This document shows positions 1 through 4,878 of a DNA stretch of 4,878 nucleotides, piece by piece (position 1 is the stretch's first letter; each line of letters starts with the position of its first letter). A program made the translations under genes and the position numbers. The stretch is from a virus (Duplodnaviria > Heunggongvirae > Uroviricota > Caudoviricetes): IMG/VR virus record IMGVR_UViG_2648501318_000008. One strand, written 5' to 3'. Below the pieces are notes generated by a model. The model worked only from the letters and a program-made list of their open reading frames with translations. It did not search any database and was not told where the DNA came from.

Positions 1-534
1 AATCTTGGTCAGCCAGCAGGCACGACACCGGAAGCCGATTCAGCGTATGCGCTGAAAGCCGATTCGGGCGCTGTGCAGCAGGTGATGACCGCAAGGCCGG
101 AGCAATCACACCAACTGCAGCAGCCTGAAGCCGATTCCGCCATTCAGCGGGAAGCCGATCGGGTAGTCCCGGAAAACACCGGGCAGCCTGTGGGACGAGT
201 GGATTATCCGGATGTGTTCGAACAGGTCTGGCGGGAATACCCGTTGCGTGCTGGGGCAAACCCGAAGAAATCCGCTTTCAGTGCTTGGAAGGCCAGATTA
301 CGCGAGGGGGTGTCACCAGAGGCCATGCTGGATGGCGTGAGGCGTTACGCAAGATACCTTGCGGCTACCGGGAAAACGGGAACGGAATTTGTTCAGCGAG
401 CGACGACGTTTTTTGGACCGGACCGGAATTTTGAAAACCCCTGGCTGCTCCCGGTAAGCGGCACGAACAACCAGCGTTGTGTGAATCATATTTCTGAACC
501 GGATACCGAAATTCCACCGGGCTTCAGGGGGTAA
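1..534 (+). CDS. Phage replication-initiator-like protein, C-terminal part (5' end lies upstream of the window)
   Basis: Frame 1 is open from base 1 to TAA at 532-534, so the gene starts upstream. Translation contains FEQVWREYPLRAGANPKKSAFSAWKARL...NPWLLP, which matches the pattern I recall for the conserved phage C-terminus found on replication initiation / replisome organiser proteins (F..W..YP....KK.A...W.K). Position upstream of nin-like small genes fits. Family assignment is from memory, not a search. Confidence 0.55.
   Translation, partial: NLGQPAGTTPEADSAYALKADSGAVQQVMTARPEQSHQLQQPEADSAIQREADRVVPENTGQPVGRVDYPDVFEQVWREYPLRAGANPKKSAFSAWKARLREGVSPEAMLDGVRRYARYLAATGKTGTEFVQRATTFFGPDRNFENPWLLPVSGTNNQRCVNHISEPDTEIPPGFRG
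27..166. repeat. Four iteron-like direct repeats (core GAAGCCGAT[TC]) inside the replication gene; candidate origin
   Basis: Core copies at 31-41 (GAAGCCGATTC), 56-66 (AAAGCCGATTC), 127-137 (GAAGCCGATTC), 151-160 (GAAGCCGATC), arranged as two pairs about 25 bp apart. They encode a repetitive EADS/KADS/EADR linker. By analogy with lambda ori, whose iterons lie inside the O gene linker. No adjacent AT-rich tract is visible. Confidence 0.3.
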
Positions 535-574: not shown

Positions 575-985
575 GTGGCAAAAGTTTTTACACAAGAAGA
601 GCGAGAAAAAATTAAAGGGCAGGTTGTTGAACTCGTACGCCAGAGTGGGCGTGAGACGTTACGGCAACTGGAAGTCAAAACAGGTGCGACAAGATATCTG
701 ATGAGCGTTCTTGCCAGAGAGCTGGTTGCTAGTGGCGATGTATACAACTCTGGTTACGGGTTATTTCCGTCTGAACAGGCTCGTAAGGACTGGCAAAATG
801 CCCGCAAAAAATTATCGAGGGCAAAGCTGAAGAAACCGGTTGTGGTTGATCCGGACCTTATCTGGTCATTACCTGACGGAGAAATACGTCGCTACGACAG
901 TCGCCTAAACATAATCTGTCGCGAGTGCCGGAAGAGCGAAGTTATGCAGCGCATATTGTCGTTTTATCAGGGGAATTTTCAGTAG
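575..985 (+). CDS. Hypothetical phage early protein, 136 aa, possible winged-helix N-terminus
   Basis: GTG start at 575 preceded by AGGAGG at 565-570; ORF ends TAG 983-985. No recognisable catalytic motif. The overlapping minus-strand ORF 538-747 has no comparable signals. Confidence 0.55.
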   Translation: MAKVFTQEEREKIKGQVVELVRQSGRETLRQLEVKTGATRYLMSVLARELVASGDVYNSGYGLFPSEQARKDWQNARKKLSRAKLKKPVVVDPDLIWSLPDGEIRRYDSRLNIICRECRKSEVMQRILSFYQGNFQ

Positions 986-3493: not shown

Positions 3494-4390
3494 ATGAGCC
3501 TTAGGTCTGAGCGTACGAAATGGGTTATGTTTTTGCCTTGTTCTAAAGAAGAAGTTGAATCGCGCCACGTTTTGGATATTGTTTTTGGCGTGCTATGTCT
3601 TGAGAAGGCCGGTATAAATCCACGAGACATATCAATATATATTGACAGCCCTAACAGGAATTTTGATGATTTTTTTTCATCAGCCTCGAAGTATCCTTAT
3701 GCGTCAAAAGCATCAGCAGATTTCTTTAATGACTTGCGTGATAATAACTACAATAACATAGTAATGTTTGTTACTGGTCATGGTTGCCCACAAGGACTGG
3801 ATGCAAAAAATCCTATTACTCCTCATCAACTTCTCAAGGCTTTAAAAGGAGCACCTAATTTAAACAATGCTATTGTTTATTTTGGACAGTGTTATGCAGG
3901 TACGTTCAATTTTGTTGGGGCGGGTAAAAGAAAGGATGGCGAGCCTGAGGTTGTTTTAATTGGGGCGACTAATCTTACTGAGAGTCTGAGTATAGCGACT
4001 ACTGAAACGTTTCTTGATGGAGATGAATTTCCTTGGACGGCCAATATTTTTCTCCTTCATGTTTTTAAATGGATGTCAAAACCTTCTGATATAGATGGTG
4101 ATGGCCGTTATACTGTAATGGATTCTTATAAGCATGCTGGTATTTTTACTAACTTTGTGAATAAAAAAACAAAAACAGATATGTTTGGTGAGATAATTAA
4201 TATGCATGCAGAGTGTAATAAACTCATGGCACTGGCTTCTTCGGGGACAGGGAATTGGATAATTGATACGACAAATGAGTTAAATTATAAAGCCAAAAAA
4301 ACACAACTACAAAATTTATTGATTGCGCACCACACTCATCAAGAATGTTGGATATTAAATGCAAGACCAGCGCAAAAAATTGAGTTTTGA
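3494..4390 (+). CDS. Putative clan CD / family C13 (legumain-like, caspase-fold) cysteine peptidase, 298 aa, no signal peptide
   Basis: ATG 3494 with AAGGA at 3484-3488. Hydrophobic strand then His-Gly (NIVMFVTGHG, His96) and hydrophobic strand then Cys (AIVYFGQCYAG, Cys133), 37 residues apart. N-terminal KWVMFLPCS...RH...AGINPRDISIYID and later VVLIGATNLTESLSIA parallel, from memory, legumain KHWVVIVAGS...RH...NGIPDEQIVVMMYDD, FIYFTDHG, VFYIEACESG and NVYATTAANPRESSYA. Needs profile or structure confirmation. Confidence 0.6.
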   Translation: MSLRSERTKWVMFLPCSKEEVESRHVLDIVFGVLCLEKAGINPRDISIYIDSPNRNFDDFFSSASKYPYASKASADFFNDLRDNNYNNIVMFVTGHGCPQGLDAKNPITPHQLLKALKGAPNLNNAIVYFGQCYAGTFNFVGAGKRKDGEPEVVLIGATNLTESLSIATTETFLDGDEFPWTANIFLLHVFKWMSKPSDIDGDGRYTVMDSYKHAGIFTNFVNKKTKTDMFGEIINMHAECNKLMALASSGTGNWIIDTTNELNYKAKKTQLQNLLIAHHTHQECWILNARPAQKIEF

Positions 4391-4696
4391 CTAATCGTTA
4401 TGTCAATTAATTACAATAACGACTTATCATGGTGAGCAAAAACGGTTTGCGGGAAAAGGAGAGTTAAGTAGAATTGCTGCGGGTGCTTGAGGCTATCTGC
4501 CTCGGGCATGAACACCAAAAGGCAGATAGAGAAAAGCCCCAGTTAACATTACGCGTCCTGCAAGACGCTTAACATTAATCTGAGGCCCAATCTATGTCTC
4601 ACAAATGTAGGTTAGCCTCTTACGTGCCGAAAGGCAAGGAGAAGCAGGCTATTGTTAACACCAAGCTGTAATGTCCCCTTTGAACCATTCTAAAAT

Positions 4697-4726: not shown

Positions 4727-4878
4727 ATGATCAAAGAGACTGTTACGATGAGTCATAAGGAACTCCACCGACTTCAGATTATTCAGGAGTCAATTAATCG
4801 ACATATTACTCAGGAACAAGCTGCGGCACGCATTGGCATTTCTATTCGGCAGGTTAAACGTCTGGTGCAACGGTATAG
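4727..4878 (+). CDS. Transposase-like HTH protein, N-terminal fragment (IS element, possibly ISNCY or IS481-type); continues past the window end
   Basis: ATG 4727 (alternative in-frame ATG 4748). Translation MIKETVTMSHKELHRLQIIQESINRHITQEQAAARIGISIRQVKRLVQRY is a classic N-terminal helix-turn-helix of IS transposases (compare IS21 IstA ...IATQIGCSERTVRRYLK). Family is from memory and uncertain; IS boundaries are not determinable here. Confidence 0.45.
   Translation, partial: MIKETVTMSHKELHRLQIIQESINRHITQEQAAARIGISIRQVKRLVQRY

Follow-up and report, generated by a model that had tools for sequence, protein, structure and literature searches.

A probable replication origin upstream of linker-encoding repeats in the initiator gene of an Escherichia coli lambdoid prophage

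The DNA analysed, called the window here, is a 4,878-nt stretch from the IMG/VR virus record IMGVR_UViG_2648501318_000008 (Caudoviricetes). Its first 534 nt are the 3' half of a replication-initiator gene of an Escherichia coli lambdoid prophage, and this gene, together with the repeats in it, is the subject of the present work. A preliminary description of the window had proposed that four copies of GAAGCCGAT(TC) in the half gene are the iterons of an origin embedded in it. The comparisons reported below support an origin inside the initiator gene, at a different place and with different iterons, and the four repeats are better read as part of the protein's linker.

The first 1000 nt of the window are 100% identical to a lambdoid prophage adjoining mtfA and tRNA-Ser in E. 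coli CV839-06, and the first 1 kb is matched by 4124 of 5426 complete E. coli genomes. A window coordinate equals the coordinate in the source prophage locus (L001) minus 8000, with negative numbers lying upstream of the window. The whole initiator gene occupies L001 7458-8534 and encodes 358 amino acids, in the gene order cI/cro-like, YdaT, initiator, DUF977. Phage Tritos (46 kb) has a 99.4% identical gene in the same setting, including the cI/cro-like and YdaT genes upstream. The parts of the gene present in the window are as follows.

1..534, plus strand: 3' half of the initiator gene (amino acids 182-358 and stop); the open reading frame (ORF) runs off the 5' end
1..198, plus strand: inter-domain linker, amino acids 182-247, rich in P/E/A/D/S/Q; matches a segment predicted to be disordered in the homologue P0150
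28..63, plus strand: 36-nt unit A (copies 1 and 2; family D1), a pair specific to the window's lineage
31..39, plus strand: copy 1, GAAGCCGAT, encoding E192-A-D
55..63, plus strand: copy 2, AAAGCCGAT, one mismatch, encoding K200-A-D
124..159, plus strand: 36-nt unit B (copies 3 and 4), the ancestral pair, with AAGCCGAT cores invariant in five lineages
127..135, plus strand: copy 3, GAAGCCGAT, encoding E224-A-D
151..159, plus strand: copy 4, GAAGCCGAT, encoding E232-A-D; overlaps the sole GATC of that stretch
199..456, plus strand: C-terminal helical domain, about amino acids 248-333; 40-95% identity to initiators with several unrelated N-terminal domains
457..531, plus strand: C-terminal tail ending in QRCVNHISEPDTEIPPGFRG; similar to the tail at the C-terminus of host DnaT, a primosomal protein

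The identification of the ORF as a replication gene was borne out. The protein gave a full-length match to PHROG 3729, 'replication initiation protein', with an E-value of 3e-256, and the RefSeq name of the gene is 'phage replisome organizer'. Weak PHROG matches were obtained with the 'replisome organizer' families 4880 (5e-7) and 5968 (1e-4), and the full protein matched zero Pfam families at the cut-off of E ≤ 0.01. Searches with each half indicated that the initiator is modular, since the N-terminal ~140 amino acids were found with many other C-termini, and the linker plus C-terminal domain with several unrelated N-termini. The linker is an insertion relative to most relatives. The full-length Salmonella homologue P0150 was modelled with AlphaFold2: amino acids 4-93 form an N-domain of helices and a beta-hairpin with high confidence, pLDDT is below 50 over amino acids 136-193, EAD repeats included, and the C-domain is helical and confident (pLDDT of 86-98 for the equivalent region). 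Thus, the earlier statement that the repeats encode an inter-domain linker agrees with the predicted disorder of their P0150 counterpart. Since Foldseek of this model against the PDB gave no significant match, the top weak matches being winged-helix regulators, no fold-based family was assigned.

The C-terminal helical domain is presumed to recruit a partner or the helicase. The tail that follows it matched PDB chains 6aep, 2ru8 and 9zbt of DnaT with E-values of 0.004-0.016, and its last ~23 residues, ISEPDTEIPPGFRG, are a near match to the DnaT tail SEPDxxIPPGFRG. This likeness to DnaT (primosomal protein i) is confined to the tail, with none outside it, and the DnaT NCBIfam model scored 18 bits against a cut-off of 201; the initiator was therefore rejected as a DnaT homologue. 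The same tail ends several otherwise different C-terminal regions (P0031, P0039, P0041, P0049 and P0098), and this recurrence hints at mimicry of a host primosome contact. Sections 7, 9 and 12 of a 2026 preprimosome structure paper (PMC13377028) do not mention the DnaT tail.

The gene after the initiator (window 575-985, L001 8575-8985) is DUF977, a PHROG 'Ren-like exclusion protein' and not a helicase loader. No helicase-loader gene follows the initiator in the L001 prophage or in Tritos, and relatives sharing the C-domain (PhiR5_2, L221, L431 and L432) have DnaC/IstB-like genes next.

Apart from the three exact copies of GAAGCCGAT and the one-mismatch copy, no further match at up to one mismatch was found in the window. 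Chance was evaluated with 200 dinucleotide-preserving shuffles, none of which reached four matches (shuffle mean 0.97). The four copies first described are thus beyond chance, although only three of them are exact, and the TC extension is present in three (GAAGCCGATTC, AAAGCCGATTC, GAAGCCGATTC) while the fourth reads GAAGCCGATCG, with CG next. Their arrangement as two closely spaced pairs was confirmed, with 24 nt within pairs and 96 nt between pairs, the two 36-nt units being 75% identical. All four copies are in frame and encode PEADS, LKADS, PEADS and READR. Since the 24-nt spacing corresponds to 2.3 helical turns, the copies do not lie on one helix face. The G+C content over positions 1-200 is 0.58-0.66, in line with the earlier remark that no adjacent A+T-rich tract is evident in the window. 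An antisense ORF at 9..143 overlaps the linker region and was treated as a by-product of the G+C-rich repeat.

The preliminary description considered that more copies of GAAGCCGAT may lie upstream of the window and recommended looking there for an A+T-rich element. No further copy was found in the source prophage; instead, the upstream part of the gene holds a much stronger repeat family, GTCACG, together with an A+T-rich tract.

L001 7586, 7596, 7606 (reads GTCACA) and 7617; window -414..-378: array 1, four GTCACG copies, inside the coding region of the N-domain
L001 7649-7654; window -351..-346: inverted GTCACG copy
L001 7846, 7856, 7866, 7877 and 7887; window -154..-108: array 2, five GTCACG copies
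L001 7895-7950; window -105..-50: A+T-rich GATA tract of about 55 bp, G+C 0.30

The spacing in both arrays is 10 or 11 bp, and array 2 lies about 260 bp downstream of array 1, so that arrays and tract span window -414 to -50 within the same gene. Directly after array 2 comes GATAAAGATACAGATAAAGATACAGATACAGATCAAGAAGATC, where the G+C content drops to 0.30 compared with about 0.55-0.6 on either side. The tract abuts the GTCACG array and ends 50 bp upstream of the window, at least 80 bp from the GAAGCCGAT repeats. Nine of the 14 GTCACG occurrences in the 17-kb locus fall in a 310-bp part of the initiator gene, and 14 was reached in none of 200 shuffles. Host-factor sites were also searched for in L001 7300-8700: DnaA boxes were found only at one mismatch or more, there was no IHF consensus, and GATC sites were located twice in the A+T tract and once in copy 4.

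The arrays follow the N-domain through a change of C-terminus. Pseudomonas phages phita81A and P7869 have an N-domain 69.5% identical to that of the window's initiator, another C-terminus, and primase/helicase next; their GTCAC copies are at gene nt 129/139/149/160 and 388/398/408/418, and those of E. coli at 129/139/149/160 and 389-430. One scan of species-representative genomes gave 53 loci, and about 25 of them keep both arrays, in Gamma- and Betaproteobacteria with a locus G+C content of 34-70%; the hosts of relatives with arrays at conserved positions span 33-70% G+C.

The GTCACG cores are under DNA-level constraint beyond coding. In 22 diverse genes from loci of 34-70% G+C, the codons of the iteron cores were nearly fixed: Val47 was GTC and Thr48 was ACG in 22/22, Gly50 was GGT, His51 was CAC and Val54 was GTC in 21/21, Ser44 was TCA in 21/22, and Thr55 was ACG in 20/21. 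The spacer codons Arg45, Arg49 and Val52 and the flanking four-fold codons used three to six codons each, with an entropy of 1.5-2.2 bits.

In more distant relatives, both array places are occupied by other repeats, CGAACGC in about 12 loci and GTAACGC(AG) in L198, L204 and L286. In forty loci, a 5-mer occurs three or more times in the array-1 window; in 36 of these it does so in the array-2 window as well, and such shared 5-mers hardly occur in the remainder of the gene. In most relatives, array 2 is followed by an A-rich simple repeat. Genes with an unrelated class of N-domain, here called type 2, possess two arrays of their own about 250 bp apart, the second adjoining a simple repeat coding for QEQEQE or PEPEPE. 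Their iterons are GAAGCCCCTTC in PhiR5_2 (L003), AAGGGTT in L432 and AAGCCTTTCA in L221, located at L003 2184-2214 and 2439-2470 and at gene nt 177/188 and 420/431/443 of L432. The two arrays of PhiR5_2 are inverted relative to each other. The HTH_36-type gene of L431 has a single run of 15-nt repeats at gene nt 348-393. Since arrays are found in both N-domain classes, a layout of array, about 250 bp, array with simple or A+T-rich repeat, linker and C-domain is common to type 1 and type 2.

The persistence through a domain swap, the taxonomic breadth, the synonymous sites and the co-variation are what is expected of cognate iterons. Therefore, the GTCACG arrays and the A+T tract were taken as the origin of this initiator gene, which they probably are. 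That the gene has an embedded origin of the classical kind is very probable. Of the original proposal, the location of the origin in the initiator gene is thus well supported, while its assignment of the iterons was wrong.

Three further observations concern this region. In L168 (Escherichia albertii), with a different C-terminus, there are six plus five GTCAC copies, array 1 being longer by two iterons, with the corresponding peptide, through an insertion. In the variant P0125, 'CHGAS' is joined directly to 'PEADS' and array 2 and the A+T tract are gone, which presumably makes it a replication-dead prophage. Right after the A+T tract, a block TGGTYCATGGCGAAAAAAYCGCC (L001 7947-7973, window -53 to -27) is conserved as DNA, with equivalents in L003, L221 and L286, that is, in the lineages with an EAD linker, and a more diverged form in Salmonella L220. 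The block includes CCATGG, to which three of the five lineages add the inverted repeat GGCGA-N5-TCGCC, and it is the left end of the shared module of linker and C-domain.

Co-variation with the initiator's N-terminal domain had also been suggested as a check on GAAGCCGAT, and here it failed, since the motif was found with GTCACG, GTAACGCAG and unrelated type-2 N-domains. In P0124 (the same as L223), an unrelated type-2 N-domain lacking GTCAC is joined to an identical four-copy linker, L354 has three copies, and L286 combines a GTAACGCAG-type N-domain with a related linker that has the pair. In PhiR5_2 and Shigella phage 75/02, where DnaC follows an initiator with a type-2 N-domain, the copies are GAAGCAGAT, GAAGCCGAT and a third one out of frame. 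GAAGCAGAT takes the place of copy 1 in PhiR5_2, which has no copy 2; in both phages the DNA of copy 4 is read in another frame, as G-K-P-I.

The motif is, in turn, absent from relatives using the same domains. The GTCACG arrays, in contrast, do co-vary with the N-domain. It was not found in the Pseudomonas phages with the same N-domain or in about 50 non-enterobacterial relatives of this domain. Scandinavium L186, which has both domain families and GTCACG arrays, has a six-residue linker without the motif, and L431, with a C-domain about 95% identical and 15-nt iterons of its own, also lacks it. The same holds for Salmonella L432 and the cdtI, mEp460, Stx and Klebsiella phages, where other repeats are present. 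Since GAAGCCGAT occurs with three iteron types and is missing from same-domain relatives, it is, judged by these comparisons, not the site read by the N-terminal domain of this initiator. Binding of the motif by the C-terminal domain was also considered and rejected as a requirement, given the absence of such repeats from L431.

The copy number of GAAGCCGAT varies from two to four among relatives. Natural deletion variants are P0125, described above, P0132, L256/L358 and P0131/L354; deletions that keep the frame remove exactly the 24 nt from copy 1 to copy 2, or the 96 nt from copy 1 to copy 3, copy 2 being lost in P0131 and L354 by the 24-nt one. Such exact deletions between copies are as expected of slippage between direct repeats in a linker that tolerates changes in length.

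A 41-nt sequence, ACACCAACCGCAGCAGCCTGAAGCCGATTGGGTTAACCCGG, is present in two exact copies in PhiR5_2 (L003 1820-1860 and 1910-1950) and Shigella phage 75/02 (L004, Stx). The copies are spaced by 90 nt and lie upstream of the initiator gene, in a 72-amino-acid ORF between it and cII. ACACCAACCGCAGCAGCCTGAAGCCGATTGGGTTAACCCGG corresponds to the linker sequence minus the 23 nt between its two GAAGCCGAT copies, and it includes the palindrome GGGTTAACCC.

The explanation proposed here, which we consider probable, is that the GAAGCCGAT copies are in-frame duplications in the linker and not sites of the initiator, and that the same gene holds the origin farther upstream, 50-414 bp before the window. 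As part of this explanation, the four (G/A)AAGCCGAT copies would have arrived with the module of linker and C-domain. The reading first put forward, in which the GAAGCCGAT copies are iterons bound by the N-terminal domain and form the core of the embedded origin, draws on four same-strand copies within an initiator gene that encode its linker, as in lambda O. In addition, GAAGCCGATTC is identical at 9 of 11 positions to GAAGCCCCTTC, the iteron of type-2 genes that share the linker, so the copies could be relics of type-2 iterons or weak sites for the type-2 initiator. Yet type-2 relatives with AAGCCTTTCA (L221) or AAGGGTT (L432) either keep the motif unchanged or are without it, and the relic is a minor possibility. 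The lack of co-variation with the N-domain, the lack of resemblance to GTCACG, the same-N-domain relatives without any copy, the A+T tract that abuts a GTCACG array 80 bp upstream rather than GAAGCCGAT, and a spacing off one helix face make cognate iterons extremely improbable. The repeats might instead act through the protein: within the disordered linker, (E/K)-A-D-S would be a short acidic motif for contact with a partner protein, and the DNA identity a by-product. The frame is kept in all four window copies, the divergent P0150 and P0151 have the motif in their linkers too, and the P0150 segment is predicted to be disordered, the usual setting of short linear motifs. Against this, E to K reverses the charge, D is followed by S, R, P, L or W, PhiR5_2 reads one copy out of frame, conservation is as strong at synonymous as at non-synonymous sites, and many relatives have no such motif; a peptide function is very unlikely, if less so than cognate iterons.

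Several points weigh against linker duplication as the full account. At the DNA level, the 8-mer AAGCCGAT varies less than would be expected of a neutral coding repeat. Its pair at 128-135 and 152-159 is unchanged at a spacing of 24 nt (23 in PhiR5_2) in the five lineages compared (window type, PhiR5_2, Salmonella L220, metagenomic L221 and L286), whose linkers are otherwise barely alignable and where identical amino acids elsewhere in the module have the same codon in only 45-55% of cases for the divergent lineages (L220, L221). Exchanges between E and K leave the 8-mer intact, and one copy persists out of frame in PhiR5_2. Among 53 linker haplotypes from loci retrieved via protein similarity only, 2/32 sites in the cores were polymorphic vs 56/201 elsewhere in the linker (Fisher p 0.007), and third codon positions gave 0/12 vs 20/65 (p 0.03); when the placement was shifted, just 1 of 104 was as clean as the cores. 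A version of this site-class test including loci fetched by the GAAGCCGAT motif itself is biased and was not used, and region-wise polymorphism among close relatives was too coarse to discriminate, the site-class test being used instead. Furthermore, some of the relatives counted as functional without the motif are prophages that may not be able to replicate, and no publication describing this origin type was found in the searchable literature, which is weak evidence of absence; PMC2647930, considered as such a description, concerned a plasmid-like island. These data leave some room for the AAGCCGAT repeats, or at least the pair 127-159, as a functional nucleic-acid element in the origin's right arm, independent of initiator specificity and travelling with the linker and C-module. 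A host factor or a different phage protein would bind this element, or it would work in the form of single-stranded DNA or RNA. The two further exact 41-nt copies upstream of the gene in PhiR5_2 and 75/02 also favour it. On the other side, no partner could be identified, DnaA boxes and IHF sites are lacking nearby, the motif is absent from L431, type-2 Salmonella L432, L186 and the cdtI, mEp460 and Stx phages, natural variants have lost copies, copy 1 has GCA in PhiR5_2 and copy 2 is dispensable, and the cross-lineage statistics, from five lineages only, are thin. A scan of IMG/VR for AAGCCGAT-N16-AAGCCGAT returned this phage family, the new lineage L286 and otherwise mostly coding low-complexity K/E-A-D repeats, and the spaced pair was rejected as a general signature. 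Such an element is on balance unlikely, though clearly less so than the two alternatives above. Slightly more doubtful is its specific form, in which the pair 127-159, with the lineage-specific duplicate 31-63, is a second, specificity-independent DNA element shuffled with the linker and the helicase-recruiting module. Shuffling with this module rather than with the iteron-binding domain would explain the frozen synonymous sites of AAGCCGAT, and origins would then be bipartite, the left part consisting of initiator-specific iterons and the A+T tract, the right part of an element linked to the module.

For the origin proposed upstream of the window, the sequences show the anatomy, the conservation and the co-variation; a course of binding, unwinding and helicase recruitment is inferred by analogy with lambda O/ori-lambda and SPP1 G38P/oriL. 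Initiator molecules would bind the phased GTCACG cores of both arrays on one helix face, with the 260-bp interval between the arrays bent or looped, and the GATA A+T tract would then open. The C-terminal module may bring in the helicase system of the host, which is suggested as the recruit because no phage loader gene follows in this prophage.

Other features were noted elsewhere in the window. Two adjacent small ORFs at 1536-1718 and 1715-1906 have the same starting peptide (MKNRKAKILLVRR... and MKNRKAKMLISRV...) and both contain WxRxSNRR; a small basic protein without a Pfam match seems to have been duplicated in tandem here. The ORF at 3494-4390 (298 amino acids), annotated as a shorter coding sequence in L001, has no Pfam match and contains GHG...QCYAG, whose spacing recalls a caspase-like His/Cys dyad, so that it may be a moron or defence gene. 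Positions 4481-4653 match the sok antitoxin RNA of a hok/sok module (Rfam RF01794, 114 bits). An ORF starting at 4727 and running off the window end at 4878 has transposase-type HTH matches (HTH_28, HTH_23) and may represent an insertion sequence that adjoins the hok locus or lies inside it.

In phage lambda and its lambdoid counterparts (phi80, 82, P22 gene 18), the origin lies in the initiator gene, with direct repeats followed by an A+T-rich tract. The N-terminal domain of these initiators carries the specificity and the C-terminal domain recruits the partner, and the halves are shuffled between phages. The present gene is like lambda O in having repeats in the coding sequence near the inter-domain region, an A+T tract next to them and modular halves that are shuffled. 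Unlike lambda O, it has no Pfam match at the cut-off used, the lambda O family thus included. Furthermore, its putative origin has 6-bp cores phased at 10/11 bp, compared with sites of about 19 bp in lambda, in two arrays 260 bp apart, one of them in the coding region of the DNA-binding domain, and no P-like loader gene follows.

The replisome organizer G38P of the Bacillus phage SPP1 binds repeats within its own gene (oriL) and has an N-terminal DNA-binding and a C-terminal partner-binding region. Our initiator shares this architecture and the RefSeq family name, in addition to the weak matches to PHROG families 4880 and 5968. It has no match to the N-terminal family of replisome organizers, which we take to be PF09681, among the Pfam searches described; its host is a proteobacterium, and the prophage has no phage helicase or loader gene. 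Iteron plasmid origins (pPS10 RepA, F RepE, R6K pi) combine phased repeats, a winged-helix initiator and an A+T-rich unwinding element. Phased direct repeats next to an A+T-rich element are likewise found here, whereas the plasmid iterons are about 17-22 bp long and intergenic and those of the prophage are 6-bp cores in coding sequence. By sequence, the initiator would fall outside both the lambda O family and the Pfam replisome-organizer family, and it probably works like a classical initiator with the origin inside its gene.

An origin inside the initiator gene is a classical concept, and the finding in itself is not surprising. The prophage family is very common, and distinguishing its probable origin and iterons from the non-iteron repeats is useful to annotate, engineer or cure such prophages. 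In addition, three iteron 'dialects' at fixed positions, inside the gene of the protein that would read them, constitute a natural data set on the recognition of iterons by initiators.

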